IMG/VR virus record: IMGVR_UViG_3300037461_001438
Coordinates: 26,477 to 90,476 of that record
Source: a virus
Taxonomy: Duplodnaviria > Caudoviricetes
Reading direction: 5' to 3' (one strand)
DNA: 64,000 nt
The notes under the pieces were generated by a model. The model did not search any database, was not told the DNA's origin, and was given only the letters and a program-made list of their open reading frames with translations. How positions within the stretch are numbered: the stretch's first letter is position 1; each line of letters begins with the position of its first letter. Shown here in pieces: positions 3,001 through 60,939 of this stretch. Made by a program: the position numbers and the translations under genes.

Positions 3001-6000
3001 CCCGGCCTTCGGTGCGATCGCGGGTGGTGTGGGCGCAGGTCTTGTCGGCAAGTGGGCCCTTGGCAAAACTGCGGCAAAGCTGACAGCCTATGGCGCAAGC
3101 GAAGCGGTCGCCGGCGGCCTTGGTGCCACAGCGGCTGGCGCGGCGATGAAGACCGGTGCTGCCGCTGTCGGCGGAGCCGTTGCTGGAGTCGCGCTGCCGG
3201 TGACCGTTGCCGCCGGGACAATCTACGCCCTTACCAAATATGCCGAAGCACAACGTGAGGAAGAAGTCAGCTCGGCAATCGGAATCAAAGAACCGAATGC
3301 ACGACTCAATGCGTTGATGGCCATTCGCGACGAACGTGTCGGCGAGAAATACGGGATCGATATGGCCGAATGGCCATACCCGGAAGAGCTTGAAAAAATG
3401 CGTGAAGAGTCGGCCAACGCGACAGATGCGTTGAGTCTTCTGACCCAAGCAATCGAGGCGACGAAGACCGAACTTGATGCGTTCAAGGCAAGGGCGAAAA
3501 CCCTTCATGACATCCGCCGCGAAGTCGAGCCCGATGGGCGCAGTTACATGCGCTTCGACGACAAAGAACTCGATGCCCTCATAAAGGATATGTTTTCAAA
3601 GGGCGGCTTCGGCGAAAACACGTATGCCAAAGGCCTTGATGCAGAAATCAAACTTGCAAAACGACAGCTTGATCGACTGAAAGCAACACCTGGAACAGAA
3701 GAGCTACAGGCCGACTACGGCAAATTTATCGAACAAAAAGAATACGAAAAGTGGTTCACGCTGAGTCAGCGCAGAATGGGCGGCATACGCGAATACTCGC
3801 AAGTCTTCGGCGCCCCGGCCGCAACGATTCAGGAGCAGCCGCAGTTTGCGGCCCCGGCAAGCCGCTACGACGACATCTTCAAAGAGGCGGCCGACAAATT
3901 CAGTATTTCGGTCGACCTGCTCAAGGCCGTCGCCTGGCAGGAGTCGCGTTACAACCCGGTTGCAGTCTCCAAGGCAGGTGCCGTCGGCGTCATGCAGATC
4001 ATGCCGGATACGGCCAAGGAACTCGGCGTCACCGACCGCTACGACCCGCGGGAAAGCATCTTCGGCGGAGCCAAGTACCTTTCGCAGCAGATGAACCGCT
4101 TCGGCGGCGACACGGCCCTTGCCCTTGCAGCCTACAACGCAGGCCCTGGCGCTGTCATCAGAAACGGCGGCATCCCGCCCTACAAGGAAACACAAAACTA
4201 CGTCCAGAAGATCATGGGCGGTGTGGCCACAGCCGGTACGACCGACACCTTCCGGCCGATGATAGAAAAGACGGTCAGGAATGAAGTGGCGCAGCTTGGA
4301 CTCCCGCCGAAGCGGGCCGAGGAGCTCGTGCAGTCGAGGATCTTTGCCGAAGAGCAGAAGCTCAAGGCGCCGACGATGAGCTTCTACGAGCAGCTCTTCA
4401 ACATGACTGGTAAGACCGACGAAAAATACTGGGACAATGAGCTTGCGAAGATCAAGCAGGAGTCCCAGACGCTCGGCAAACAGGCAACGCCCGAACAGCA
4501 GGCTGCGTTCGAGTACCAGGCGGAATGGTTACAGAAAGAGCGACGGCGCGCGCCGCAGGTGAGGGCCCTTGAGGGGATCGAGGAGACAACCGGAGTAACA
4601 CCGAAGGCCCTGATCGACATCCGTAAAGAACGAGAGACGGAGGCTTATCGCACCAAAATCAATCAAGAATGGGTCAAAGGCAACCAGGAAACCATTGCCA
4701 AACTGGAAAAAGCCCATGCTATCGAGATGCTAAAACTCGACATGCAAGGATACGCCGGCCGCCTCAAGGCAAACGAGGACTTCTTCAGCGAGACAGGCCT
4801 CATGACAAAGGACTTCCAGTCGCTCGAGGTCAAGTCACTCGAAGACCACATCGAGATCTTAAGAAAGTCCGGCAAGTACAACGAGGACGAGCTCGCAAAA
4901 CTTTACGAATACCGCATGGAAAACCTGCGGCGGAAATTCATCGAGCCGGCCAAGCAGGAGCTTGAAAAGCTCTTCGGCGCGACCGGCCGCATGGCGCCCG
5001 AGCTCAAAAAGATGGAAGCCCTCGAAATCGAAGACGACGTCAAGAAAATGCAGGACAAGAACCTGCCGGAAGACCAGATCGAAGAGTACCGATGGCGCCG
5101 CTACCTCGATCTGAACGCGAAGGTGCTGGAGAGCACCGATGACGTCGCAAGCGGCATGCAGGCGGCCTGGCTGCGCTACCAGGCGACGGTCGAGCCGCTT
5201 GCGAAGTCGGTGTCCGACACATGGGTCAACGCGGCCCACAGCATGGAGTCGGCCTTCAAAGAAGGCTTCTTCGACATGATGGAGGCGAACTTCGACAACC
5301 TCCAGGAGACGGCCACGAACGCCCTCAAGATCATCCAGCGAGCCATGGCGGCAACCCTCTTTGATATGGTCAAAATGCCGATCATGGGTGCCGCCAAGAC
5401 TGGCATGGACAGTCTTTTCAAAAACATTTTTGGGCCATCAGGAGCCACTAAGACAACGCCAACCACCGGCGACCGTCTGATTCCAGATTTTGGAGTTGCA
5501 AAAGGTGGAGCCTTCACTCCAGGCGGCCATTACGCCTTCGAAAAGGGTGGGGTGGTCGACCGGCCGACCTACTTCCGCTTCGCCAAAGGCAAAGGCCTGA
5601 TGGGCGAGGCCGGCCCCGAGGCGGTGATGCCGCTCGAGAAGACGGCCGGCGGCGGCCTGGGCGTCAAGGCCTTAAGCGAAAAGCACGGCCCGATGATCAT
5701 GCCGCTGAAGCGCATGCCAGACGGCGACCTGGGAGTCCAGGCGCAATTTGCCGCCGGAGGCGTGTTCGGTGCCAACGAAACGTTACAACCGAATCCGCAG
5801 ATGGAAGCCGCCCAACAGGCCGCCCAGCCAGCAGCAGGAAGCGGTGGTGATGTGAAGGTCATCATCAACAACCATACCGGAGAGAAAGTCGAAGCCAAAG
5901 AGAGCCGTGGCCCCAGTGGCAACCGTGAGCTTGAAGTGATGATTGGTAATGCCTTGATGAAAGACGGGCCAGCCTCAAGGGCCCTGCAGCAGACTTACGG

Positions 6001-6861: not shown

Positions 6862-7259
6862 TGCAGCCTGACCTGTCAAAATATGTCGGCATCCCTTTTG
6901 TAGACCACGGCCGCAACCTGGCCGGCTGTGACTGTTGGGGCCTTATCCGGCTTATTTATAAAAATGAGTTCGGTATCGACCTGCCGGACATGGGGCCGCT
7001 CTATAATCATGTTTCAGACATGAGCGGCATGGCGAATATTTATGTAGACCAGCTTCCGAAGTGGGAGAAAACGCAAGCTCCGAAAACGGGAGATGTCGTT
7101 TTACTGAGAATTCAATCTGTCCCGATCCATGTAGGGATCGTTCTTGATGGCAGCACAATGCTTCACGTCATGCAGGGCTGCGATGCGGTTGTTGAAAACT
7201 TTAATACGCCATTGTGGAAGAACCGTGTGGAAGGATTTTATCGATGGAAAAAGTCTTAG
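6858..7259 (+). CDS. NlpC/P60 tail assembly protein (gpK-like)
   Basis: YVGIPFVDHGRNLAGCDCWGL (catalytic Cys), GDVVLL, HVGIVL...MLH. Confidence 0.9.
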   Translation: MMQPDLSKYVGIPFVDHGRNLAGCDCWGLIRLIYKNEFGIDLPDMGPLYNHVSDMSGMANIYVDQLPKWEKTQAPKTGDVVLLRIQSVPIHVGIVLDGSTMLHVMQGCDAVVENFNTPLWKNRVEGFYRWKKS

Positions 7260-10200
7260 TCGCCTGCCGAAAAAATCCGTTCATTCCAGGCCATGCTGAC
7301 GTTGAACTGGCCGAAGGCGGCACCATCGCCGAAATCCTCGACCAGGTAGGCTTGATGAAAACGGCCGAAATCCACAGCGGGATTTTCGTTTTCATCGATG
7401 ACCGTCTGATAGAACGAGATGCGTGGCAAACCACAAAACCGACAAACGGCTCAACTGTTTCAATCGGTATTGCCCCAGGAGGGGGAGGCGGCGGTGGCGG
7501 CGGCAAGAATGCAATGCGCACGGTCGCAATGATCGCCGTAATGGTCATCGCGATCGCTGCAAGCTATGGCGCAGCGACAGTTTTGGCTCCAGGGATGGGT
7601 TTTGCCGCTGGCGGGCTTGGGGCAAGCATAATTGGAGGGATCGCCGGAGCAGCTGTCGGCATTGCCGGAGCCATGCTCGTCAACGCCCTTATCCCGCCGC
7701 CAACGCCCAAGAACAGCTCGGATAGTGGTCCCAACTATCTCTCCCGTATGGGGAACCGCATGGACCCTTACGGGCCTGTCCCGAAGATTTATGGAAAACA
7801 CAGAGTCTTCCCACGCTACGCCTCAATGCCTTACACAGAGCTAGTCGGCTCAAAGGAAAACTATCTCCATTGCCTGTTCTTGATTGGAAAAGGCAAATAC
7901 GATCTTTCCGATTTTAAAATCGGCGACACGGCGCTTTCATCGTACCAAGGCGTCGAAATGGCGATTTACAATACCGACTACACTCTCGACTTCCCATTAT
8001 TTCCAAATGACGTAGGTGAAGAATCGCTCTCGATCCTGCTTGAGCAAAATGTCCAGCATGTGAGGACGACCACGACAGATGTCGAGCACATCTCGCTTGA
8101 ATTCACCTTCCCAGAGGGACTCTATCGAATTTCAAGCAGCGGGGGCAGGCGCGCTACAACCGTTGAATTCACCATTGAATATTCACCTAAAAATCAAAAT
8201 AATTGGAAGGCCATGGGCGGCACAAGAATAAATGTCGCCAATAATCCCACAACCCTTCTTGCAGTCGGCCAAACCGCAACAAGCGCTACCGGCTCCGGAA
8301 CGATTGCAAAAATCCATTATTCGGTAATCCAGCAATTCGTCGAAACAATAGAAATAATCGAATCCTACGGCATCGGATGGTGCCCAGAATCCGGCGGCTG
8401 CTATAATGTGATTCGATACGAAGACGTCTATCAAGATGTAACCGTGGTGTCCGCGATCGATGTCTCGGTCACAAGCGGATCTTTCTCTGCCAGTCAGACT
8501 GTCCAGGTTGAATATTCCCCTGGTAATTACGTCAATTTGACATCGACAAGCGTCTACTTGAATCCGTCTACCGTTCATGATGAAAACGGCGCCCCTTTCA
8601 GATGGGGAACATCGTTCGATGTCCCCAAAGGCCAATACGATATCAGGGTTACCCGTACAAGCTCGCACTCGGAAAGCAACCATTATTACAGCACCTACTG
8701 GACAGTGCTCCGCGGCGTCACCAAGCAAGTACCCGTCACCCTCACCGGCTGTACTTTAGTTGCACTGCGGATCAAGGCGTCGAACCAGTTGAACGGCGTG
8801 CTTGATCAATTTAACTGCATGGCCGAAGGTTTTGTCGAAGTGTGGGATGGAGCTAATTGGACCCTTGCCAAAAGCAGGAGCCCCGTGTGGGCTTTTGTCG
8901 ATATTCTATGCGGAACGTCGAACAAGCGGCCAATCAGCAAATCACGAATCGATCTTGACGCCGCCATAGGATGGCATCACTACTGCGTGGAAGAAGGATT
9001 TAATTTTGATGCCATCATCGATTACAAGACAACCGTTTGGGAACTTCTGCGGCAAGTCTGTGCGGTTGGCCGTGGCAGCCCAGGCATGACCGACAACAAA
9101 TTCACTATCATCGGTGACATGCCAAAGCCGATGCCGGTCCAGCACTTCAGCCCGAGAAACTCGTGGGGCTTTTCCGGAAGCCGTGTCTTCCCCGATATCC
9201 CGCATGCGCTTCGCGTTCGCTTTCCGAACGAAGTAAAACAATACGAAGAAGACGAATGCATCATCTATGATGATGGCTACAATTCCGGCAATGCCACGAT
9301 CTACGAAACAATCGAATTCTTTGGCGTGACCAATTACAACCACTGCTGGAAACTTGGCCGCTACCATCTTGCCACACTCAGGCTCAGGCCGGAAACATAT
9401 CAATTCAATACCGATGTCGAGCACATGGTCTGCACCCGCGGCGACAGGGTGCGCTTGACGCATGACGTCCTGCTTGTTGGCCTTGGACAAGGGCGCATCA
9501 AGTCCATCTCGACCACATCGATCTCAATCGACGATGAAGTTGTAATGGTGACCGGAAAGACATACGGCTTTCAATTCAGGCGCTCGGACGGAACATTCAA
9601 GACATGTACTCTTACAACCGTAAACGGTACCCATCCGGCCGGGACTGCCTTGACCATCAGCCCAGCAATGAATCCTGCCGATCTGCCTGCCGTCGGGGAT
9701 CTTGCCTTCTGGGGTGAGTCCGAACATGAGGCAATCGAAGTCGTCGTTTCACGCATCGAGCCTGGGCCTGATCTTACCGCAAAGCTAACCTGCATTCCTT
9801 ACAATGAGGCCATCTACACAGCCGACCAAGGGACCATCCCGATATGGGATTCGAACATCACGTTGCCGCCTGTTGTCGACCGCAGGCCGCCAAAGCCCAA
9901 GATCGTCTCGTCGATTTATAACTACAGGCCAGAACAGCTCAACCCGGACGGCACAGTTGCCCTCATAATGAGCGTTGGCTTCTCGATGAACGCAACCGGA
10001 TTTCTTATTTCAGGCTATCCAGAAACAAGTGCCGGGTTCATTGCCCAATATCGGGAAGACGATGCTCAGTGGACAGAACTGCCGCACCTGTCCCGGGAGC
10101 AGCGAAAATTTGAGTTCCCTGTCAAAAACGGCCTTGTCTACGACATGCGGATCAGAAGCTTCAACTACCCAAACGGGCTGTCCGATTGGGATACGCTCGA

Positions 10201-13200
10201 AAACGTCACCGTCGACTTCGCGGCCCAACCGCCGTCGATGATTGCAAACCTTCGCTGTGTCGGCGGCGGGACAAGCTTCACGACCACAGATCTTGAGGTC
10301 ACCTGGGACACCGTTATCAACGAGTATGGCGGCGCATCCATTCTCGACTATAAGGTTGAAGTGCGATCAAGCGATGGGAACACCCTGCGGCGAACCGAAT
10401 TCGTTACGCAGAATTATTACATGTACGACTTCGATAAAAATGTCACCGATGGCGGCCCGACGCCGGCATTGCAGATTCGCGTGTGGGCGCGAAACAAATT
10501 CGACGTTCTCTCCGACACCTTTGCAAGCGCTGTCTTTACGAACCCGGCGCCGCAAAACCCAAGCGGGCTCACTTCATATTCTCCGATGGGCGGAGTTGAA
10601 TTCGGCTGGAACGCAAACACCGAAGCCGACTTCAGCCATTTCATCTATCGGTTTAAAATCGGTGACGACCCCGAGGAGCCCTGGAGCGGGTGGAAACTTG
10701 CTCCGGCAACGGCTTTCTTTAAAATGTTTTCTGAAGACGAAAAAGCGCTTTATGGAGAAACGCCTGAATTTTATTTCGAGATAAAAGCCGTCGATGTCTT
10801 TTTCCAGGAATCAGGTGCCACAGCGTCGAACCAGACTGCAGGTTCGCTCAATATCGACCTTACCGATATCGATGATTTCGCGATCAACGCTTCGAAGATC
10901 TTCATGAAAATTCCGGTCATTCAAAATTTGACCCTAACCGACAACTCGCCTTCAGCTGGACGCATTTCGTGGAGCGACTGCGAAATCTACTACAATGGCA
11001 ACAAGTATGAAATTAACGCTGGCAGCACGCCGGAAAACCCGGAGTCTCCAGCGCTTCCATACAGGTATATTTACTGGAAAGACCTTGCCACCGGAACCAG
11101 CTTCGCCACCGGCTTTCTCGTCTCGCAGGAGCACCCGGCTGACATCGAATCCGACTGGAAATCCGGTGAAGACTTCATCATCGCCGTCAACGTCAACGGG
11201 GTGGCCCAGGAGGCCTGGAACGCAATCGCAAACCAAGTGATCGGGTCAGCCTATATCATGAATGCCGCAATCGAAGATGCCCACATCAAAGAGCTGAACG
11301 GCTCAAAGATCATCGCCTCAAGCTCAATTGCGATCGGCAGCCGCACCTTTGGTGCAGGCGGCATGCAAATCGAATACGATGGCGACCACGGCGCACAATT
11401 TCATATCGGGAACGGATTGACCGGCGATGATGCTCGCTACATGAAATATATCGGAGGTGATGTTCTTCTCAAAGGAACCTTTATCCTCGAAGAAGGATCG
11501 ATGGGATTTGTGCATCTTTCGGATGCGCCAAAATTCTTCAACCAAGGCATAATGCCCACATCGACCCCCGGCGACCAAACAATAAACTTTGCCCTTCTTG
11601 GCCCAACACATGATGGTTATGGCTACGATCCGCAAGGCGGCCCCATATTCGAGCATCCGACATCGGGAACCTTTTCTACTTATTTCACAAAAAACGGATC
11701 AGCGGATTTTAGGACATATACCTATTTTACTTCCGGATCAAATTATTTAGTTTGGAACAATGAACCATCTTTCAACTGTGGGATGGATTCATCTAGTGAT
11801 TATGGAGCAGCTACTTGCGTGCCGGTAATCACAAGAAGCGGACCCGTAAATATCGACTTTACTTATCCATATAACAATTATGCCGATGAAGATGCGATAA
11901 CAAATCCACTTGATAGTTCATATGGGAAAACATGCGTTGCATTAACAAAAAGCTCTCCTTCATATAACGGAACCAACCCACCAGAATACGGGGTCGGATC
12001 GAATAGTGGCCTTTATTTGGTCCTCGGACTCAATTCCTCAGACTTGGGCGGCAATGCAAGCGGTAAATTAAGAGTCATCCAAAGGGTGAATGGGACAAAC
12101 ACAACTGTTGCAAGCGTTAACCATACCTATACAAACAGAAGAATCTACACCGGGTCATCAAATCCTTGGAGATATATATGGACAAATTCTGTCGACAATC
12201 CAACATACGCGTCATCAACCACTGAAAATTCAATCATTAGATTCCAAGACGGAGCTAAAAAAATAATAAAGCTAAGAATGTGGCGACAGGGCTCCAATCA
12301 AGTACCAAGTGCTGTTGAGATCCAAGGATCAAACACGGGTTCGTTCACAGGAGAACAAACAACAATTTACACAAACAGTTCACTTGGGACATGGTCTTAC
12401 CCGGCGTGGAAAGATCTTACTTTTGAAAATCTAAACAGCTATGAATATTATAAAATAATCCTAACCTTCCCGTCTGTGAACTGGACTAGCATGACTTCCA
12501 TGCAAATAATGGATGCAAGCAATATTAATCTTGGAACCCCAAAATTTTCAAGATTTAGCTGGTCAATTGACTTTGACGATCATACATTTTCAGTATATGA
12601 AGATGGGGCCACAGTCATCAGTAACCAAAGTTTTTCTTCGTCGATCGATTCTTATTTGACAAGCAATGTCCAATTTAGCTTCTACAATTTTCAAACATAC
12701 AAAGGCATGAAATGTTTCCAAAATGTTAAAATATGGGCAAATGAATTCAACCCTGATCCGAACTCAATAACTATCGGGAAGATCAGCTCTAATGCTGCAA
12801 GGGCATGGCTTAGATTTGAAAATGTAAATATTCCCAAAAATGCGACAATTAACTCTGCAAAATTAGTTTTTAATTCAAAATCGCAACTTTCAGGAACTGT
12901 TAATGTAAGAATCCAAATTGAGAATGCTGAAAACCCATTGGTGCCAGTGTATTATTCCGATCTTGTCGGAAGATCACTTGGAACTGCAAGTGACAAATCA
13001 ATCACTTCACAATGGAACGCTGAACAATCTTACGAGATAACAGGTCTTGAAGCCATTTTTGAAGAGCACTTTGGAAGATCATATTGGCAGGAAGGGAATA
13101 CAATCCAAATTCATATTCTGGACAATGGATCATCTTCCAGCGTCAATAGAATGATTTACTCTTACGAAGCAAACATAAATAAAAAAGCATATCTTGTCAT

Positions 13201-13813
13201 TAACGTCGACACCCAGGAATATACGTTGCGCGCCAAGGATCTGTGGCGAAACACGAACAACGGAACTCTTTATATTTACAGCGGGACTGAATGGCTCCCG
13301 GTGACAAACTCGGTTGAACTCGGTGACATCGCCTTCAATAACATCGTCAAAAAATACCATCTGGAATATGGCAATGTCGGCGGCCGGGTACTTGAATCGG
13401 TCACCGGGACATTCGTCCCCGGCTTTGTTTACATGGGCAACAAAACCGCCGCAACCGCCGTTACCACCAGCGCAACCGCTGTGGCCACAGCTGATGCGCT
13501 TACGGCATCCGGTGCCGATGACGAATTCTTCCTTGTCGTTGCCGATGGCGTTGGCACGGCTGGAAGCGACAACTCCGGTACCTTGACCTGGGCCAACACC
13601 TCTATCAAGCTTGAAGCGAAAGAAGGCGCCGGCTCCTGGACCCAGATCGGCGATACCTACACAATAAAAGACTGCGGTTACGGGAAGTCGCTTTCGATTA
13701 GCCATCTCTATACACCAACCGCCGCTGGAGCGACTCAGTTTAGGGCCACAATAGAGGGGGCCTCGGGGCTCTTGCAGACGGTAAATATTCAGGTTGTTCA
13801 TCATAAAGGTTGA
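7244..13813 (+). CDS. Central tail fibre / host-specificity J-like protein with N-terminal gpI-like domain and C-terminal carbohydrate-binding-like insert
   Basis: Start taken at 7244 (GGAAGGA Shine-Dalgarno). Gly linker, hydrophobic Gly/Ala stretch, GPVPKIYGKHRVFP, T(G/L)VALRIKASNQLNG, GDRVRLTHD and FN3-like repeats; the region near 11575-13220 is AT-rich. Confidence 0.9.
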   Translation: MEKVLVACRKNPFIPGHADVELAEGGTIAEILDQVGLMKTAEIHSGIFVFIDDRLIERDAWQTTKPTNGSTVSIGIAPGGGGGGGGGKNAMRTVAMIAVMVIAIAASYGAATVLAPGMGFAAGGLGASIIGGIAGAAVGIAGAMLVNALIPPPTPKNSSDSGPNYLSRMGNRMDPYGPVPKIYGKHRVFPRYASMPYTELVGSKENYLHCLFLIGKGKYDLSDFKIGDTALSSYQGVEMAIYNTDYTLDFPLFPNDVGEESLSILLEQNVQHVRTTTTDVEHISLEFTFPEGLYRISSSGGRRATTVEFTIEYSPKNQNNWKAMGGTRINVANNPTTLLAVGQTATSATGSGTIAKIHYSVIQQFVETIEIIESYGIGWCPESGGCYNVIRYEDVYQDVTVVSAIDVSVTSGSFSASQTVQVEYSPGNYVNLTSTSVYLNPSTVHDENGAPFRWGTSFDVPKGQYDIRVTRTSSHSESNHYYSTYWTVLRGVTKQVPVTLTGCTLVALRIKASNQLNGVLDQFNCMAEGFVEVWDGANWTLAKSRSPVWAFVDILCGTSNKRPISKSRIDLDAAIGWHHYCVEEGFNFDAIIDYKTTVWELLRQVCAVGRGSPGMTDNKFTIIGDMPKPMPVQHFSPRNSWGFSGSRVFPDIPHALRVRFPNEVKQYEEDECIIYDDGYNSGNATIYETIEFFGVTNYNHCWKLGRYHLATLRLRPETYQFNTDVEHMVCTRGDRVRLTHDVLLVGLGQGRIKSISTTSISIDDEVVMVTGKTYGFQFRRSDGTFKTCTLTTVNGTHPAGTALTISPAMNPADLPAVGDLAFWGESEHEAIEVVVSRIEPGPDLTAKLTCIPYNEAIYTADQGTIPIWDSNITLPPVVDRRPPKPKIVSSIYNYRPEQLNPDGTVALIMSVGFSMNATGFLISGYPETSAGFIAQYREDDAQWTELPHLSREQRKFEFPVKNGLVYDMRIRSFNYPNGLSDWDTLENVTVDFAAQPPSMIANLRCVGGGTSFTTTDLEVTWDTVINEYGGASILDYKVEVRSSDGNTLRRTEFVTQNYYMYDFDKNVTDGGPTPALQIRVWARNKFDVLSDTFASAVFTNPAPQNPSGLTSYSPMGGVEFGWNANTEADFSHFIYRFKIGDDPEEPWSGWKLAPATAFFKMFSEDEKALYGETPEFYFEIKAVDVFFQESGATASNQTAGSLNIDLTDIDDFAINASKIFMKIPVIQNLTLTDNSPSAGRISWSDCEIYYNGNKYEINAGSTPENPESPALPYRYIYWKDLATGTSFATGFLVSQEHPADIESDWKSGEDFIIAVNVNGVAQEAWNAIANQVIGSAYIMNAAIEDAHIKELNGSKIIASSSIAIGSRTFGAGGMQIEYDGDHGAQFHIGNGLTGDDARYMKYIGGDVLLKGTFILEEGSMGFVHLSDAPKFFNQGIMPTSTPGDQTINFALLGPTHDGYGYDPQGGPIFEHPTSGTFSTYFTKNGSADFRTYTYFTSGSNYLVWNNEPSFNCGMDSSSDYGAATCVPVITRSGPVNIDFTYPYNNYADEDAITNPLDSSYGKTCVALTKSSPSYNGTNPPEYGVGSNSGLYLVLGLNSSDLGGNASGKLRVIQRVNGTNTTVASVNHTYTNRRIYTGSSNPWRYIWTNSVDNPTYASSTTENSIIRFQDGAKKIIKLRMWRQGSNQVPSAVEIQGSNTGSFTGEQTTIYTNSSLGTWSYPAWKDLTFENLNSYEYYKIILTFPSVNWTSMTSMQIMDASNINLGTPKFSRFSWSIDFDDHTFSVYEDGATVISNQSFSSSIDSYLTSNVQFSFYNFQTYKGMKCFQNVKIWANEFNPDPNSITIGKISSNAARAWLRFENVNIPKNATINSAKLVFNSKSQLSGTVNVRIQIENAENPLVPVYYSDLVGRSLGTASDKSITSQWNAEQSYEITGLEAIFEEHFGRSYWQEGNTIQIHILDNGSSSSVNRMIYSYEANINKKAYLVINVDTQEYTLRAKDLWRNTNNGTLYIYSGTEWLPVTNSVELGDIAFNNIVKKYHLEYGNVGGRVLESVTGTFVPGFVYMGNKTAATAVTTSATAVATADALTASGADDEFFLVVADGVGTAGSDNSGTLTWANTSIKLEAKEGAGSWTQIGDTYTIKDCGYGKSLSISHLYTPTAAGATQFRATIEGASGLLQTVNIQVVHHKG

Positions 13814-32624: not shown

Positions 32625-32699
32625 AGCGGGGTAGCCAAACGGTAAGGCAGCGGATCGATAATCCGTCATTTGCAGGTTCGATTCCTGCCCTCGCTACCA
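32625..32699 (+). tRNA. tRNA-Ile(GAU), atypical
   Basis: AGCGGGG/CCTCGCT acceptor, GCC-AAACGGTAA-GGC D-arm, GCGGA-TCGATAA-TCCGT anticodon arm, GCAGG-TTCGATT-CCTGC T-arm, A73 and encoded CCA. Confidence 0.85.
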
Positions 32700-32703
32700 A
32701 ATT

Positions 32704-32882
32704 GGGGGATTCATCCAACCGGGAATGAATACCGGCGAAAAGGCACAATCGGAGCAAGGCCGAAAAGCTCCGCAACCTCAGAGAGGCAGGCAAAGTACGC
32801 TTTTGGGCCCAAAAGCGAGAAATGCCAAAAAAGGACCCGACTTTTTTAAGCGGAAATGCGGGTTCAAATCCCGCATCCCCCA
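32704..32882 (+). ncRNA. tRNA-like RNA with the anticodon arm replaced by a ~105-nt structured insertion
   Basis: Perfect GGGGGAT/ATCCCCC acceptor stem, canonical GCGGG-TTCAAAT-CCCGC T-arm, D-arm-like 5' segment, internal hairpins; starts 4 nt after the tRNA-Ile CCA. Confidence 0.7.
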
Positions 32883-39800: not shown

Positions 39801-40093
39801 TGCCATACGGACATCTTACCTGGCCGGAATACGAATCTGCCGAAGAAATCGTCATCGAGTCCGGGGTTCCTATTCCGGAAACCCATGTCGTCAGGCGTGA
39901 ACCAAAATATGAGTACCCATTTTTTGAAATGAAAGTGGGGGATTCTTTTTTGATTAAATCCGACGACCCAGACCATACGGAAATGTTTCGCGGCAGGGCG
40001 TTGTCATGTGCAAGAGATTATAAGCTTTTCAATATGAAATTTACAACACGCGTCATTGGATACAAAACGGTTCGTGTCTGGAGAACGCAATGA
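39800..40093 (+). CDS. Small phage DNA-binding-like protein (paralog of 40387)
   Basis: IESGVPIP...YPFFEMKVGDSF...VRVWR. Confidence 0.65.
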   Translation: MPYGHLTWPEYESAEEIVIESGVPIPETHVVRREPKYEYPFFEMKVGDSFLIKSDDPDHTEMFRGRALSCARDYKLFNMKFTTRVIGYKTVRVWRTQ

Positions 40094-40386
40094 ACACTCT
40101 AAAGAAAATATCCGTCACCAACACGAAGCTTTCAAAGCTGCTTGCAGTCATCACGATCGACCCGAGCCGCGAGCCCGAGCTGCGCCGCGTGCTTGCCGAA
40201 ATCAAAAGGGAAGCCAATGAGTACCTCAAAACAGAAAAAGCGGCGTAAGTTCATGGTCATCGAAAGCTGTGATGAATGCAAGCACTACGAGGTATTTGGT
40301 CATGAGGTGTGGTGTTTCGAGCTCAGCCGGCAATTGAAAAGCAAGACATACAGGATTCCCAAAGATTGCCCATTGGATGACGACCC

Positions 40387-40641
40387 ATGCATCAAATAAA
40401 AATAGAAAAAGGTATCCCTGTCCCTGAAGTCAAACAGACGACCCGCCGCAGGTACCCAACCGACATCATGAAAGTCGGCGAGTCGTTCTTCATCTGGTGC
40501 AACAACTGGGAAAGTGCTGCACGAATCCGGAACACGGTCTATTCGTCCGGCTATCACCTGCGCAAAGAAGGTAAAAAATTCGTCGTGAAAATCGTTGTCG
40601 AAAACGACCAAACCGGAGTTCGCTGCTGGAGGGTCAAATAA
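40387..40641 (+). CDS. Small phage DNA-binding-like protein (paralog of 39800)
   Basis: IEKGIPVP...YPTDIMKVGESF...VRCWR. Confidence 0.65.
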   Translation: MHQIKIEKGIPVPEVKQTTRRRYPTDIMKVGESFFIWCNNWESAARIRNTVYSSGYHLRKEGKKFVVKIVVENDQTGVRCWRVK

Positions 40642-40905
40642 ATGCCTGAACTTCACAGATACAATTGCGGATGCATCGGATTTGCGGCGGATGAAAACGG
40701 CAACGCCATCATCGTCGACGTCTGCGACGACTCTGACGGGACACCTCACACATTCACATGGCGCGACATGTCGGGGAAGGATTCCGAGGTATTGAGCCCC
40801 GAGGAGGCGAACGAAATCTTCATGGAAATCGATTTCCTCATTGCCCAGGGATATCGTCTGAGGGAAATCAGATTTCTCATGGGCATCAAGACGGAGACTC
40901 TATGA
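40642..40905 (+). CDS. Hypothetical protein
   Basis: Abuts the previous stop codon; coding-like. Confidence 0.55.
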   Translation: MPELHRYNCGCIGFAADENGNAIIVDVCDDSDGTPHTFTWRDMSGKDSEVLSPEEANEIFMEIDFLIAQGYRLREIRFLMGIKTETL

Positions 40906-41150
40906 AAAAAATAGCCATCATCCTATTTGTACTGCTTCTGGCCGCCTGCACCGACCCCTCTGTCGCCCGCCGCGTTCTCGAATCAAACGGCTACACCCAG
41001 ATCGAGATCACAGGCTACAACATGTTCGACTGCTCAAAGGACGACTTCTATCACACCGGATTCCGCGCGAAGGCCCCTGGCGGGAAGGTCGTGTCGGGTA
41101 CGGTTTGCAGCGGGCTTTTCTTCAAGGGCAACACGATCAGATTTGATTAA
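40902..41150 (+). CDS. Small lipoprotein
   Basis: MKKIAIILFVLLLAAC lipobox; conserved-looking CSKDD..HTGF...SGTVCSG. Confidence 0.75.
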   Translation: MKKIAIILFVLLLAACTDPSVARRVLESNGYTQIEITGYNMFDCSKDDFYHTGFRAKAPGGKVVSGTVCSGLFFKGNTIRFD

Positions 41151-41181
41151 AATACGCAAACAAAAAGAAAGGAAAGTGAAA

Positions 41182-41406
41182 ATGGGAGAGCTGCGATGCC
41201 TTAATGAAACCGGCGACACCAAGATGATCTGGGACCCCGACAATAAGGATGAGGTCGAGGTCGCCGAGAATCAGTTCAACGCCCTCAAAAAGAAAGGCTT
41301 CCAGGCCTATTCCGTCAAGAAGGGCGGCGAGAAGAACAAGCCGATCGACAAGTTCGACCCGGACGCCGGCATGATCATCATGGTGCCCAAAATCGTAGGG
41401 GGGTGA
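41182..41406 (+). CDS. 74-aa protein ending in di-Gly, candidate ubiquitin-like (beta-grasp) protein
   Basis: GAAAGG Shine-Dalgarno; C-terminus MIIMVPKIVGG-stop. Confidence 0.7.
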   Translation: MGELRCLNETGDTKMIWDPDNKDEVEVAENQFNALKKKGFQAYSVKKGGEKNKPIDKFDPDAGMIIMVPKIVGG

Positions 41407-41410
41407 TGCC

Positions 41411-42034
41411 GTGGCAACGTACTATTACGACACGAGCGACACTTGGGGCAACTGGACAGGTTCAACCAGCACCATCAGCTATTCAAACTCAGCATGGACC
41501 ACCTGGACAAGCGCTGGAACAGGCACGGCCACTTCCACCACCAGCGACTACTACATCTGGACCACCTGGGCGGATGTCTCCGAAGCCCAGAAGGAAACCC
41601 GAGAGCAGCGCCGCGCGCGCGAGGCCCAGGCCAAGATCGAGGCACAGGAGCGGGATGCCGTCATCGAGGCGAGAAAGCAGGCCGAGCTGACGGCGCAGAA
41701 GCTTCTTGAAGATCTTTTGAACGCCGAAGAAGCGGAGGTCTACCGGGAAACCGGCCGCGTCCTCATCAAGGGCCAAAAGCACGACTACATCCTGACCAAG
41801 GGCTATCAGACCGGGGTTCTGAAGATTGAAAAAGGCAAGGTGATCGACCTGAAATCCCACATCGGACGCGTGCGCGGCCGGCGTCTTTGCGTTCACCCGG
41901 TCGACCTGTCGAAGCTGCCCGATACCGACAAGGTCATCGCCATGAAAGTCGCCCTCGAGGCCGAAGAGGACAGGATGCTCAAACTGGCGAACGATCACGG
42001 CGAGCAGGAGCTCAACCTGGCTGCAAATGGGTAA
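41411..42034 (+). CDS. Hypothetical protein with Ser/Thr/Trp-rich N-terminus and C-terminal LCVHP...PDTD domain
   Basis: GTG start 4 nt after the -GG gene; 207 aa. Confidence 0.7.
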   Translation: MATYYYDTSDTWGNWTGSTSTISYSNSAWTTWTSAGTGTATSTTSDYYIWTTWADVSEAQKETREQRRAREAQAKIEAQERDAVIEARKQAELTAQKLLEDLLNAEEAEVYRETGRVLIKGQKHDYILTKGYQTGVLKIEKGKVIDLKSHIGRVRGRRLCVHPVDLSKLPDTDKVIAMKVALEAEEDRMLKLANDHGEQELNLAANG

Positions 42035-42038
42035 AATA

Positions 42039-42196
42039 ATACCGTGCGGCGTGGAAGGACACGCAAAGCAAAGGCCGTAAAGGCTACAAACTTACAACGG
42101 CGAACGTTTAGCCCGGTACCTCGAGCACTGTCGGGTGTAAACAGGGTTATAGCCCCAATGTCCGTTGCAGCCGGTACTCAAGCCCGACCACGGTAT
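42039..42196 (+). ncRNA. Second tRNA-like RNA with expanded central domain
   Basis: 8-bp closing stem ATACCGTG/CACGGTAT; D-arm GCGT-GGAAGGAC-ACGC at the canonical offset; T-arm-like GCCGG-TACTCAAGC-CCGAC; internal stems CAACGG/CCGTTG and CCCG/CGGG; occupies the whole intergenic gap. Confidence 0.6.
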
Positions 42197-42220
42197 ATTA
42201 AACCTAAAGGAGAAAAACAA

Positions 42221-42439
42221 ATGAAAGTCTTCGTTTGGAGACGCATTGGACAGGCAACCAATAATTATCATTCAGAAGGTGGCGTTGTCGTCTTTGCAAA
42301 AAGCGAGAAACGCGCACGAGAGATCGCCAACGCCGTTGACGGCTGCTGCATCGAGGACTCCGAGGCACCCAACGACGTCCGTGATGTCACCGACGGCAAA
42401 GAGGCGGTCTACATCATGCCCGATGCGGGGTGCTGCTGA
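42221..42439 (+). CDS. Small hypothetical protein
   Basis: AAAGGAG Shine-Dalgarno; GGVVVFAKSEKRAREIA...PDAGCC. Confidence 0.65.
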   Translation: MKVFVWRRIGQATNNYHSEGGVVVFAKSEKRAREIANAVDGCCIEDSEAPNDVRDVTDGKEAVYIMPDAGCC

Positions 42440-43227
42440 AGATGGCTCATAATTCATCCAACTACAGCCAGCGCGGGACACCGGCCTCAAGTCAGATCAT
42501 TTTTCTGGAAGACAAGGTCAAAAAGCTCGAGGAACTTCTGGAATCGGCGGAGAAAAAGAATCGGCAGCTGTCTCTCTCGGTCGCCTTGCTGGAGATACAG
42601 CTCAAATGCGCCAAAGAACTTTGCCAGGTTTATTACAATATGGCCATGGAAGGCAAAGAGGAAGACGAACGATGGATGCGGCTTTTTACCTAACAATTCC
42701 ATCCATATGAGAAAATAATGGCCCCAAAAATTAAAAACTGGACTTTATTTGTCGAATATGAATGCCCTGTCGGCAAAAAGAAAACCATGGCAAAAGGCCA
42801 TGTCGGCTGGAATATTGGCCTTGGTGGCGACAGCGGTTTTGCGGCAAACTTCATTCTATAATTAAAATAGATTCATGGTGAACATTATGTATAACGATCT
42901 TAAAGAATCCATCGAAGGCATTACCAGCAGAAAAATATCGAGCTGCACCCAAAAGGACATCACAATAATCCACCAGGAGTATTTCACGCTGCTCCAGGCT
43001 TACGAGAACGCCGTCAAAAATCTTGATCTGATGGAGATCTGGCATCACCTGAACAAGCTACAGACCGACTGGGACTGCCTTTTAATGGACATGCAATCGA
43101 GCCACGATCAACGGCTGCCGAAGCATGCTCTCGACATGATGGCAAAATACACAAGCAAGAGTCTCCAAGAGGCAAAGAGCAAACTTTCCGACCAAATGAA
43201 AATAATCGAAACAGGAGGACTTCTACC

Positions 43228-44511
43228 GTGAGCCATTTTCTCGTTCTTGTTGTTGGCGATGACGTCGAAGGGCAGCTTGCGCCGTTTCAGGAAAACAACA
43301 ATGGCGACTGTCCGCAAGAGTACCTGGCGTTCAATGACTGTACCGAGGAGGTCATGAACGACTGGGAGAACGAGATGAACCAAGAGTTCTACCCAAACCG
43401 TTCCTACCAGGATCCGGAAGCCTTCGAGGCGTTCGAAGGCGGCATCTACCATGTTAAAAATCTCTATGGCGAATTTAACCCCGACGAAATCTTCTGTATC
43501 TACGGCGCCGACAGGGAAACCCAGAAGCTCTGGTTCAAGGTTGTCTCAGCCTCGATGACCGATGACACCCGCCGCAACCATGAGCTTGTCCTCGAAAAGA
43601 TCGACCCGCCGATCATGACCCCCGTCAAGGAGGTCTACGCAAACATCGACGAGTATGCCGAAGAGAAAGGCTACAAAAAAGAGAACGGCCGCTACGGGTA
43701 CTATGAAAACCCCAACGCCAAGTGGGATTGGTATATCGTCGGCGGCCGTTGGAGCCACTGCCTGAAGCTCAAAAAGAACGAAGACGTACAGTTCGACCCC
43801 TCGCCATTCACCATGAAAGAGGTCGAAGAGCTCGTCGAAATGCTTGGCGTCGACGGCAAAAAGTTTTCCCAGTACATCGATGGCTACATGACCAAAAGAA
43901 CGGCAATCCTCGACACCGTCGCCAAATACATCGACGCCCATTGGCCGACCGATTACATCATTGGCGGTCTTGGCGTTTTTGACGACTTGGCGATTAAAAA
44001 AGGCGACAAAAACATTTTTGACATAAAAGTCCCCGGCTATTGCGACGGCACCAGAAAGCAGCACATCGACGTCGAAGGCATGGAGGCCCCTAAGCGTGAA
44101 CGCTTCTCCGAGGTCTGGGATGGCTTTCATCAAAAGCGTGAAACAATCGGCATGAGCTACGCCGATCTTGTCAACTCTATGGACGAGCCGACCGACGAAA
44201 AGCCCTTCAGGGACACCTGGAAGAGCGTGCCGGAAGAATTTAAGAAATGGATCGACGACAACCTTGGGTTTTTCCATGGATATAAAGAGCTGAAAGAACT
44301 CGCGATCATGTCCAAAGACGAGTACGTCGCCTGCCAAAGCGCCTGGTGCCCTTACGCGCTCCTCTGGAACGGCAAGTGGTATTCCCGTGGCGATATGATC
44401 TGGTTCGGGATTTCGATCCGCGAGGAGAGCCAGTGGACCGGATCGTTTCGAGAGCTCTGGAAGGAGATTCCCGACGACGCAATGATCACTGCGGTCGACT
44501 GTCACATTTAG
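43228..44511 (+). CDS. Conserved phage hypothetical protein (427 aa)
   Basis: MSHFLVLV...QLAPFQEN, ENPNAKWDWYIVGGRW, YALL..GKWYSRG.M.WFG, VDCHI pattern common in phage genomes. Confidence 0.8.
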   Translation: MSHFLVLVVGDDVEGQLAPFQENNNGDCPQEYLAFNDCTEEVMNDWENEMNQEFYPNRSYQDPEAFEAFEGGIYHVKNLYGEFNPDEIFCIYGADRETQKLWFKVVSASMTDDTRRNHELVLEKIDPPIMTPVKEVYANIDEYAEEKGYKKENGRYGYYENPNAKWDWYIVGGRWSHCLKLKKNEDVQFDPSPFTMKEVEELVEMLGVDGKKFSQYIDGYMTKRTAILDTVAKYIDAHWPTDYIIGGLGVFDDLAIKKGDKNIFDIKVPGYCDGTRKQHIDVEGMEAPKRERFSEVWDGFHQKRETIGMSYADLVNSMDEPTDEKPFRDTWKSVPEEFKKWIDDNLGFFHGYKELKELAIMSKDEYVACQSAWCPYALLWNGKWYSRGDMIWFGISIREESQWTGSFRELWKEIPDDAMITAVDCHI

Positions 44512-59598: not shown

Positions 59599-60939
59599 AT
59601 GCCGCAACTACCCCCCGACAGAATGGTCAGTAAAGCACTGATCAAACTGACAACCAATGACCCGTTTTTCGGCTGCATCGCCATGCGGTTGAACGTCGAG
59701 CCGGTAGACGAGCACTTCATGAAGATCTTCAAGAGCACCCGCGGCTTTGATTTCACCATGGCGACCGACGGCAAGAGCCTGAAATACAGCCCCGATTGGG
59801 TCGCTCAGCAGCAGTTAAACGACCTGGTCGGCGTCCTGGCGCACGAGGCGGCCCATGTCGCGCTTAAACACAATGTCCGGCGCGGCGCCCGCGACATCAA
59901 TAAATGGAACATCGCCTGCGATCTTGCGATAAACGGCCACCTGGTCGAATCGGGCTATTCGTTGCCGGGCTACGATGACGACGCAAAAAAGCAGTCGCTG
60001 CAGCAGTACACCAGCATGTCGGCAGAAAAGATCTACGCGACCATTCCGGACGGGCCTCCAGGCGGGCAGAACCCGCCGCCGCAAGGCCAGAACCCGCCGC
60101 CGCCAGGAGGGGACGGGGGAGGATCTGCCCCTGAACCTGACGAAAATCAAAATCAACAGAAACAAGATCCTTGGCAAAATGCACCGCAGCCGCCAGGCGG
60201 GATTCTCGACCACCCGGAACTCAACCCGAAAAACCCAAACAGCCAAAAGGAGATCGAGGAGCAGCAGGACGGCGAGATCGAGGCTGCCTACAATGCGGCG
60301 AAGATGGCCGGCAACACCCCCGGCTGGGTCGACCGACTCATCAAGGGCCGGCGCAAGGTCATCACCGACTATCGCGAGCTTCTGCGCGACTGGATGGAGA
60401 AGTCGATCTTCAAGGGTGACTATTCCTGGTCGGTGCCGAACCGGCGCTACATTCCGCACGGGTTCTGTTTGCCAGGGTTTGCGCCGGAGCTCGACGAGCC
60501 GAACATCATCTTTGTGATGGACACATCCGGCTCGATCGGAGACGAAGAGGAGGAAGAGTTCGCAAGCCACATCAACTCGGTGCTCGAGGAATTCCCGTCG
60601 AGCTATACCATTATTTTCACGGACACACGCGTCCGCGGCCGGCAGGAGATTTCCCACGACGATCTGCCGATCGAGCTGCAGACAAAAGGCGGCGGCGGTA
60701 CGAACTTCAGCGACGTCATGCGGGTCATCAAAGAGGAATACGTCAAAAGCGACAGGCCGCCGCAGGGGGTTCTCTTCTTTACCGACATGGAAACGGGCTC
60801 CTTCGGCGACGACCCTGGCATCCCGGTACTGTGGCTTGTGCATTCAGTCTATGGCGACAACACACCGGAGGCACCGTTCGGCAAGGTTGTCGTCTGCAAA
60901 TCCCAAAAACAGCTCGAGGAAGAAAATGATAGCGTTTGA
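59599..60939 (+). CDS. DUF2201-like metallopeptidase plus vWA domain protein
   Basis: TMATDG, AHEAAHVALKH (HExxH), WNIACDLAIN, Pro/Gln linker, MDTSGSI (MIDAS), GGGGTNF, FFTD. Confidence 0.9.
   Translation: MPQLPPDRMVSKALIKLTTNDPFFGCIAMRLNVEPVDEHFMKIFKSTRGFDFTMATDGKSLKYSPDWVAQQQLNDLVGVLAHEAAHVALKHNVRRGARDINKWNIACDLAINGHLVESGYSLPGYDDDAKKQSLQQYTSMSAEKIYATIPDGPPGGQNPPPQGQNPPPPGGDGGGSAPEPDENQNQQKQDPWQNAPQPPGGILDHPELNPKNPNSQKEIEEQQDGEIEAAYNAAKMAGNTPGWVDRLIKGRRKVITDYRELLRDWMEKSIFKGDYSWSVPNRRYIPHGFCLPGFAPELDEPNIIFVMDTSGSIGDEEEEEFASHINSVLEEFPSSYTIIFTDTRVRGRQEISHDDLPIELQTKGGGGTNFSDVMRVIKEEYVKSDRPPQGVLFFTDMETGSFGDDPGIPVLWLVHSVYGDNTPEAPFGKVVVCKSQKQLEEENDSV

Follow-up and report, generated by a model that had tools for sequence, protein, structure and literature searches.

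How small can a ubiquitin-type system be? This question is raised by a locus of a tailed phage (Caudoviricetes), at which the gene of a 74-aa protein ending in Gly-Gly (GG) is followed by the gene of a 207-aa partner. The two genes lie in a 64,000-nt stretch of DNA, positions 26,477-90,476 of the IMG/VR record IMGVR_UViG_3300037461_001438; "the window" means this whole stretch. Beta-grasp modifiers (MoaD, ThiS, SAMP and ubiquitin) end in a hydrophobic strand plus GG, and they are conjugated via enzymes with a catalytic Cys. In bacteria, ubiquitin-type tagging has so far been a matter of host systems with E1, E2 and a deubiquitinase, which serve in sulfur metabolism or in anti-phage defence. 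The 74-aa protein, which we call the Ubl (ubiquitin-like protein), and its partner form a large family without a match in any domain library. We tentatively read the pair as a Ubl/E2 system that has been stripped to two genes and is carried by phages and plasmids.

The tail of the Ubl reads IIMVPKIVGG and is followed by the stop codon; after a spacer of 4 nt (TGCC), the partner gene begins. The partner protein includes GRRLCVHPVDLSKLPDTD. This arrangement and its coordinates agree with a preliminary description of the same DNA. The features of the locus are given below; ORF denotes an open reading frame and AF2 an AlphaFold2 model.

41170-41176 (+): Shine-Dalgarno sequence AGGAAAG of the Ubl gene, read from the sequence; it ends 5 nt before the ATG
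41182-41406 (+): Ubl gene (ORF A), 74 aa; ATG at 41182, TGA at 41404-41406
41398-41403 (+): the two terminal Gly codons of the Ubl gene, GGG GGG, also the putative Shine-Dalgarno sequence of the partner gene (from the codons in 20 loci)
41411-42034 (+): partner gene (ORF B), 207 aa; GTG at 41411, TAA at 42032-42034
41411-41584 (+): partner residues 1-58 with three W-x-x-W motifs (motif counts, alignment and AF2)
41600-41716 (+): partner residues 64-102, a predicted long charged helix (AF2)
41723-42031 (+): partner residues 105-207, a predicted E2/RWD-like alpha/beta domain (AF2 and VIA-align)
41888-41890 (+): TGC codon of Cys160, at the end of predicted strand 4 (homolog alignment)
42035-42220 (no strand): 186-nt intergenic gap, excluded from the module (ARAGORN, Rfam, folding and relatives)

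Conservation of the Gly-Gly tail and linkage of the two genes

A word-seeded search detected 21 close relatives of the Ubl. When 1.84 billion cluster representatives were searched with a profile, 2228 matches were obtained at E<=1e-3 and 884 at E<=1e-10, and the last column of the profile coincided with the last residue of the protein in most rows. The terminal GG is present in all 19 full-length close homologs. Furthermore, 125 of the 149 best representatives of the family (84%) end exactly in GG. Among the remaining 24 representatives, 17 possess the same P-x-h-x-G-G tail (h, hydrophobic residue) plus 1-118 further residues, and these extended members thus resemble ubiquitin precursors. Both features of the preliminary description, the -GG protein and its Cys partner, are far beyond chance. 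The consensus of the tail is [ILM]-I-[ML]-[VA]-P-[PQA]-[MIL]-[VA]-G-G (h-I-h-V-P-P-h-x-G-G), and it aligns with the end of E. coli MoaD (...FFPPVTGG). Further near-invariant positions are G11, D12, W17, E24, A28, F32, A42, G49 and F58. Thus, the 74-aa protein possesses the flexible tail, ending in GG or processed to GG, that is typical of Ubls.

Membership in a known Ubl sequence profile (ThiS PF02597, ubiquitin and similar) was not detected. The Ubl gave no Pfam match at E<=1 and matched no PHROG, NCBIfam or PADLOC model. Since none of 150 family members matched ThiS (PF02597) or ubiquitin Pfam at E<=0.01, homology to a particular Ubl family is not supported. A sequence search of the PDB with the Ubl profile gave no match. 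When the profile was aligned with E. coli MoaD by hhalign, only the last 22 columns were covered, with a probability of 4%, which is not significant. The clusters obtained from the ESM Atlas were all viral and without a name; ThiS, the nearest cluster bearing a name (and a Pfam family), scored only 0.77 and is a lead only. Blastn of the region gave no match, and tblastn against cultured-phage records gave three weak matches for the Ubl and none for the partner domain. Relatives of the Ubl were not detected in two scans of 185,579 species genomes, which were limited to the peptide patterns used.

The two genes are found together outside the window, as a two-protein system would demand. In 19 of 20 IMG/VR loci, the partner is the next gene downstream of the Ubl; these include two loci (L015 and L016) in which a HNH homing-endonuclease ORF lies between the two genes. 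In L020, the sole locus without the partner, the Ubl is truncated and chimeric. All-against-all clustering of the neighbourhoods showed that the Ubl and the partner are the only conserved neighbours. The linkage is kept at about 30% Ubl identity in KX853510 (Virus Rctr197k) and in LR756511 (a 595-kb uncultured phage). Positions 3806-4237 of the former locus (L021, KX853510.1) encode a tandem double beta-grasp Ubl ending in Pro-Gly, and the partner is the next gene. In addition, eleven Bradyrhizobium plasmids carry the pair beside recombinases and insertion sequence (IS) elements. There, a 73-aa protein ending in RLVGG is followed by a partner of ~140 aa, which corresponds to the C-terminal domain alone. 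Thus, the core of the module consists of the Ubl and the E2/RWD-like domain, and the WxxW repeats and the stalk are an accessory of this phage subfamily. The pair was found only on phage contigs and plasmids.

Some of these loci show further peculiarities. The HNH ORF of L015 (5226-5714; the same in L016) fills the junction exactly, from the Ubl stop codon to the partner start, as though a homing endonuclease had inserted itself there. In L021, the annotation 1.5-3 kb upstream of the Ubl includes transposase genes and a CRISPR repeat region. The plasmid examples include 5983-6645 of L042 (CP126019.1, Bradyrhizobium japonicum USDA 123) and 5983-6647 of L041; PLSDB lists no coding sequence for the partner in L041. 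The 208-kb phage L019 (6771-7562) and the 197-kb phage L021 (6141-6980) each have an additional orphan copy of the C-terminal domain of the partner, which is found 1-2 kb downstream of the main pair and has an unrelated N-terminal part. The L037 locus (2453-2980) is scrambled: the Ubl frame runs into the last third of the partner domain, and the middle of the domain is on the opposite strand, which reflects an inversion or an assembly artefact.

The spacers between the two genes are 1-8 nt across the loci. In 15 of the 20 loci, the terminal Gly pair is encoded by GGA-GGN or GGG-GGN, 1-8 nt ahead of the partner start, and these codons thus double as the Shine-Dalgarno sequence of the partner. 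The partner N-terminus M-A-T is conserved, and the relatives start with GTG, TTG or ATG. Judging from this layout, the Ubl and partner genes appear to form a translationally coupled module whose products are made together. The idea that the GG is conserved solely as a ribosome-binding site was rejected, since the GG is kept with non-Shine-Dalgarno codons (L017, L022 and L010), including GGC-GGC and GGT-GGT, and also where the partner is not adjacent to the Ubl. Thus, the constraint acts at the protein level, and the ribosome-binding site is secondary. A programmed frameshift that fuses both ORFs was also rejected, because the frame relation is +1 in the window versus -1 in L001 and L002.

Predicted folds and invariant residues

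The AF2 model of the Ubl has a predicted local distance difference test score (pLDDT) of 81 and a predicted template modelling score (pTM) of 0.68. Its elements follow in the order beta-beta-alpha-beta-beta-beta, with strands at residues 2-6, 13-17, 41-45, 53-55 and 64-68 and a helix at 22-37. The last four residues are of low confidence and floppy (pLDDT 48 for the last residues). The model contains a mixed sheet gripping one helix (beta-beta-alpha-beta-beta), which corresponds to a beta-grasp at the fold level only. In a Foldseek search of the PDB, the matches of the Ubl had E of about 0.1 and a template modelling score of about 0.4, and were almost all ubiquitin, NEDD8, Ras-binding domains, PB1 domains and bacterial Ubls; neither the Ubl model nor the partner model gave a match at E<=0.001. 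In VIA-align, protein L and protein G B1 domains came out on top (Z 5.0-5.7). PB1, UFM1, the Raf Ras-binding domain, Ddi1 UBL, Mth1743, MoaD, ISG15, SUMO and BubA were obtained at Z 3.4-4.8. The preliminary description had read the same order of elements from the residue pattern as a beta-grasp; the AF2 order agrees with it, and nearly all the matches are beta-grasp proteins, though weak. We consider the assignment of the model to the beta-grasp fold reasonable.

The partner is predicted to consist of three parts. Residues 1-58 are rich in Ser, Thr and Gly, uncharged (zero Lys/Arg), and carry three W-x-x-W motifs; AF2 gave this part a pLDDT below 50 and no confident structure. Nearly all full-length partner homologs possess 2-4 W-x-x-W motifs and 55-75% S/T/G/N/A. 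Residues 64-102 were modelled as a single long charged helix (pLDDT about 90), which is probably a coiled-coil stalk. Model confidence is high in the C-terminal domain (pLDDT 83-94 over residues 105-200), falling to 70 in its last seven residues. A helix comes first in this domain, followed by four strands, a pair of helices and one last strand (helices at 105-114, 171-184 and 186-192; the four strands at 116-120, 125-129, 135-139 and 153-160). An N-terminal helix, a four-stranded antiparallel meander and C-terminal helices, that is, a UBC-type sandwich, are thus all seen in the model.

The partner domain was compared by VIA-align with 48,161 PDB representatives. The top row was Ubc9 (Z 5.3, root-mean-square deviation 3.4, 86 aligned residues). 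Five RWD entries (RWDD2, GCN2 twice, RWDD1 and RWDD2B) were obtained at Z 3.9-4.8, and then three KNL1 C-terminal entries, the RNF25 RWD and the RQC complex. The bacterial CdnG-E2 complex (8hsb_B) was found at Z 3.5, and the lower rows contained UBE2E1, FANCL, BubCD, Ubc8, the Tsg101 UEV, Cap2 and UBE2F. VIA-align on the Foldseek candidates added Ube2V1, Mms2 and E2S. Foldseek itself gave nothing significant for the partner. Since E2 or RWD domains, members of one superfamily, fill 11 of the first 13 VIA-align rows, we accept an E2/RWD-like fold of the head at the level of the model; with modest Z values, this is a resemblance, and homology is not proven. Such a domain had not been foreseen in the preliminary description.

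At the sequence level, neither the partner of the window nor its 36 homologs belong to a meaningful Pfam, PHROG, NCBIfam or PADLOC family. No match to UQ_con, RWD, UEV or Prok-E2_A-E Pfam was obtained at E<=0.05 in any of the 36 members, and sequence searches of the PDB with the partner and domain profiles gave no match. Across the 36 homologs (down to 22% identity), only W15, W29, C160, D173 and N194 are invariant. Cys160, which was found in 36/36 aligned homologs, is also kept in the distant L021 and L022 and in the Bradyrhizobium plasmid partners. The fold of the small protein, the conservation of the GG and the Cys, and the co-occurrence of the two genes had been set beforehand as the points on which the two-protein idea could fail; all three were checked, and the idea is unrefuted.

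Proposed mechanism and its rivals

The preliminary description recognised no E1/ThiF or JAB gene in the window, and this was confirmed over the whole genome. ThiF/E1 (PF00899) and Prok-JAB are absent from the complete 90-kb genome of this phage, with the positive control detected in both cases. ThiF is also absent from five related phage records, three of them complete (positive control found in 14/14 genomes). For UQ_con, no match was obtained in the phage genome, but the positive control also matched nowhere. Thus, a cognate E1 was found neither in the operon nor in the genome, and a host E1 is possible.

Based on these results, we tentatively propose that the pair is a minimal Ubl/E2-like module, in which the C-terminal glycine of the Ubl may be loaded on Cys160 of the partner as a thioester, with activation from outside the cassette. 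The two proteins would be made together by translational coupling. The partner would probably be a stalked protein whose E2/RWD-like head carries Cys160, backed by the invariant Asp173 and Asn194. The head would bind the Ubl and take its C-terminal glycine onto the cysteine. As the tail is MoaD-like, a host adenylating enzyme of the MoeB/ThiF type would be the simplest candidate for the activation. In the minority of members whose tail continues past the GG, an alternative would be an attack of the partner cysteine on the peptide bond, similar to what the single E2 does in E2-CBASS. The variable N-terminal region of the partner (here the WxxW repeats and the stalk) might then select the target to which the Ubl is passed. 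E2s that work without E1 have precedents (10.1101/2022.05.25.493364; PMC12948482).

One of the systems closest to the pair is E2-CBASS, a type II "short" cyclic oligonucleotide-based anti-phage signalling system, in which a lone bacterial E2 acts on the C-terminus of CdnG/cGAS without E1 (10.1101/2022.05.25.493364; PMC12948482). As predicted here, it combines an E2-fold protein, a reactive Cys, the C-terminal glycine of an operon partner, and no E1 or JAB gene. Moreover, CdnG-E2 (8hsb_B) is among the structural matches of our partner, as given above. The two systems differ in several respects. In E2-CBASS, the E2 acts on a nucleotidyltransferase and draws its energy from the removal of residues that follow the Gly, whereas the presumed substrate here is a 74-aa beta-grasp protein that already ends at GG in 84% of the representatives. 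The only conserved neighbour of the partner is the Ubl; a gene for a CD-NTase (a nucleotidyltransferase resembling cGAS/DncV) or an effector gene was not found. The two systems share no sequence similarity, and ours is set in a phage instead of a defence island.

Several observations weigh against the thioester proposal. By sequence profile, neither protein is connected with the ThiS, ubiquitin, UQ_con, RWD or Prok-E2 families. Structural similarity is weak throughout, with Z values of at most 5.7 (Ubl) and 5.3 (partner) and Foldseek E values no better than 0.1; VIA-align itself cautions that a Z below 8 may stem from a widely shared arrangement. In the partner, only about 10 residues join strand 4 to the helix that follows, as in non-catalytic RWD domains, and the partner has neither the His-Pro-Asn (HPN) motif nor the long active-site flap of true E2s. 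A catalytic Cys in the flap after strand 4 was not found; Cys160 ends strand 4, in the context C-x-(H)-x. Judged from the AF2 model and textbook E2 topology, the short loop would place Cys160 off the canonical position of the E2 cysteine, and the details of the modelled head fit RWD better than a canonical E2.

The residues around the cysteine also vary. The preliminary description had proposed the Cys-x-His of the partner as a conjugating or cleaving site. The Cys holds; the His does not, since His162 is R, Q, Q or V in 4 of the 36 homologs, and is thus dispensable, and V or L occupies the position in the most remote forms from phages and plasmids. In one plasmid copy, Asn194 is replaced by Arg. 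Furthermore, a carboxylate that is free has to be activated at the expense of ATP, and in no locus is the pair linked to an enzyme that uses ATP. In addition, part of the conservation of the GG codons could serve the downstream ribosome-binding site. By analogy, a non-canonical active site in the head is conceivable. Bacterial E2-like families without the classical HPN histidine are on record (PMC1779556), and in ATG3 and ATG10 the Cys stands beside a His-Pro turn (10.1101/2023.07.17.549391).

The main rival explanation is that the pair is a non-covalent adaptor. In this case, a non-catalytic E2/RWD-like head, comparable to UEV or RWD domains and to kinetochore proteins with a stalk and an RWD head, would hold the beta-grasp protein, the GG tail and Cys160 would be structural contacts, and the WxxW repeats and the stalk would anchor the scaffold somewhere in the cell. 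UEV domains bind ubiquitin non-covalently. The closest structural neighbours of the head after Ubc9 are RWD and UEV domains (GCN2, RWDD1/2, KNL1, Csm1, Tsg101 and Mms2), led by non-catalytic RWD domains, and the compact connection from strand 4 to the helix is RWD-like. A long helical stalk followed by an RWD-type head, as in Csm1, Mad1 and KNL1, emerges in both Foldseek, where Csm1 and Mad1 are the best though weak rows, and VIA-align. The absence of an E1 from the phage and the tight translational coupling, which is typical of stoichiometric complexes, also favour an adaptor. However, an adaptor leaves unexplained the obligatory GG end in 84% of the representatives and the precursor-like form of most of the rest. 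It also leaves unexplained why a single Cys is invariant from phages to plasmids amid varying surroundings. Moreover, the RWD and UEV domains differ from the partner in that they have no conserved cysteine and no dedicated gene for a GG-ended protein, and share no sequence similarity with it. On balance, we regard a pure adaptor as somewhat unlikely, although it is a serious rival of the thioester proposal.

A bolder version of the thioester proposal is that the pair is a self-sufficient or host-E1-parasitic ubiquitination machine of two genes, which might even act on a membrane lipid such as phosphatidylethanolamine, much as ATG3 and ATG8 do. A lipid target is conceivable for this subfamily because the head is stalked and the N-terminus is uncharged, Trp-rich and interface-seeking. 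ATG3 senses membranes through an N-terminal element and passes its Ubl on to a lipid (10.1101/2023.07.17.549391). As predicted for the partner, ATG3 and ATG10 (H-P-C active site; 10.1101/2023.07.17.549391) have an E2 fold without HPN and a Cys next to a His-Pro turn. In contrast, the motif here is C-x-H-P, in which neither the His nor the Pro is invariant, and the likeness is one of motif and architecture only. We consider this version improbable.

Another explanation is a counter-defence decoy: the pair would jam or hijack host Bil, Bub or CBASS Cap2/Cap3 systems by competing for E1/E2 or by capping targets. Such host systems use Gly-ending Ubls together with E1, E2 and JAB (PMC10557695, PMC11601596 and PMC10097602), and it is precisely the parts able to engage a host E1 that the phage provides. 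Small accessory genes surround the cassette, which was found on mobile elements only, with no relatives in the species genomes covered by the two pattern scans. The Bil (BilABCD) and Bub operons (classes 6a-6e of Iyer 2006) resemble the pair in having a Gly-ending Ubl and an E2-like protein without the HPN histidine, and BubCD and a bacterial Ubl-deubiquitinase complex are among the weak structural matches (PMC1779556, PMC10557695 and PMC11601596). However, an E1 and a JAB peptidase are present in every one of those operons, which serve host defence, whereas both genes are absent genome-wide here. The partner has no Pfam Prok-E2 or PADLOC match, its Cys ends strand 4 and does not lie in a flap, and neither protein is similar to any PADLOC defence model. 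The pair is also far more widespread than expected for a counter to relatively rare systems, and no experiment or paper linking it to them was found. A decoy is thus doubtful.

The MoaD-like tail (P-P-h-x-G-G) also suggests a sulfur-carrier pair, in which the GG protein would be a thiocarboxylate carrier of the MoaD/ThiS type and Cys160 would bear a persulfide used in a thiolation specific to the phage. The structural matches of the Ubl include MoaD and an archaeal protein resembling ThiS (Z 3.4-4.2), and ThiS is the nearest Pfam-bearing cluster in the ESM Atlas, at the low score given above. Phage-encoded Ubls are known (TAPI). MoaD, ThiS and lambda gpI (TAPI) share with the Ubl the small beta-grasp, the hydrophobic strand, the Pro-Pro segment and the terminal GG. 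However, no ThiS Pfam match was obtained in the 150 family members, and the phage has no E1/MoeB. The partner is not MoeB, MoaE or gpK (JAB/NlpC); it has no rhodanese, MoaE or ThiG-like features, and its fold is E2/RWD-like. We regard sulfur transfer as very unlikely.

An inhibitor-enzyme pair of the toxin-antitoxin type, in which the GG tail of the Ubl plugs a Cys/Asp/Asn site of the partner, would fit the order of a small and then a larger gene with spacers of 1-8 nt, the occurrence on phages and on plasmids beside recombinases and IS elements, and the orphan extra copies of the partner domain. Against it, the fold of the small protein is not a DNA-binding one, large virulent-looking phages carry the pair as well, and no similarity to any known toxin family was found. 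This explanation is thus equally hard to credit.

Literature searches found no paper that describes a phage Ubl/E2-like pair. The new elements from the window are the partner with WxxW repeats and a stalk, the GG codons that appear to double as a ribosome-binding site, the MoaD-like consensus of the tail, the precursor-like minority forms, and the rejection of an RNA component. If the covalent reaction proposed here takes place, the pair would be the smallest Ubl system known, and the source of the activation energy, either host MoeB/ThiF or a new route, would come into question. If lipid or protein tagging occurs, it would be a viral counterpart, in the bacterial world, of Ubl lipidation or protein tagging with two genes only. 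If the proteins only bind each other, they would be a new phage adaptor built from parts of the ubiquitin system. Whether covalent or not, the pair matters for the question of how Ubl pathways are used or subverted by phages and of how E2 and RWD domains evolved early on.

The downstream gap and the surrounding phage genome

The preliminary description had placed a tRNA-shaped RNA in the 186-nt gap downstream of the partner, as the third part of the system. This was contradicted by all analyses. ARAGORN detected no tRNA or tmRNA in 42035-42220, even at a relaxed threshold. In the whole window, it found only a tRNA-Ile at 32625-32699, and none at 32704-32882, the site of another proposed tRNA-shaped RNA. 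An Rfam search of 40000-44000 at E<=10 gave no match in the gap and three chance snoRNA rows elsewhere. The minimum free energy of the gap is -53 kcal/mol, versus -48.6 ± 4.1 kcal/mol for dinucleotide shuffles (z -1.09), and 32 of 200 shuffles fold as stably. The closest relatives (L001 and L002, with a 93% identical Ubl) have no such gap, and their next gene follows directly after the partner stop; no look-alike of the gap was found in the window or in any fetched locus. Thus, although a long-range closing stem can be drawn in its minimum-energy fold, a tRNA-like RNA working with both proteins is scarcely credible, and we treat 42035-42220 as ordinary intergenic DNA at a mosaic junction.

The viral record has 90,476 bp and is rated complete by CheckV. 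The Ubl and partner genes are single-copy in this genome and sit among small unnamed genes directly after the DNA ligase. The genome also encodes SNF2 and UvrD helicases. Its tail module is lambda-like, with a tape measure carrying an SLT domain, a minor tail protein and a J-like central fibre. Downstream of the gap, the next credible gene starts with the ATG at 42221, behind a strong AAAGGAG site.

The J-like fibre (7214-13813, +; 2199 aa) belongs to PHROG 31 and matches Pfam FNIII-A_GpJ and Phage-tail_3. Its residues 29-91 gave a sub-threshold ThiS-like match (PF02597, E 4.5e-4, 21.1 bits versus a cut-off of 22.5). From this match, the N-terminus looks like a Ubl of the lambda gpI (TAPI) type fused to J, an arrangement described by Iyer et al. 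2006 (PMC1779556). A JAB-domain gpK was not found in the complete genome. The 74-aa GG protein showed no relation to this ThiS-like N-terminus, as the hhalign alignment was not significant.

The gene just upstream of the Ubl (40902-41150, +) encodes an 82-aa predicted lipoprotein (MKKIAIILFVLLLAAC...). It is a member of PHROG 902 (E 4.8e-30, function unknown) and gave a faint match to a Cor superinfection-exclusion-like signal peptide. Farther downstream, 59599-60939 (+) encodes a 446-aa protein with DUF2201_N (putative metallopeptidase, E 4.7e-42) and VWA-like DUF2201 (E 4.1e-24) domains; the label "HNH endonuclease" that PHROGs gives to its family looks like a mislabel.

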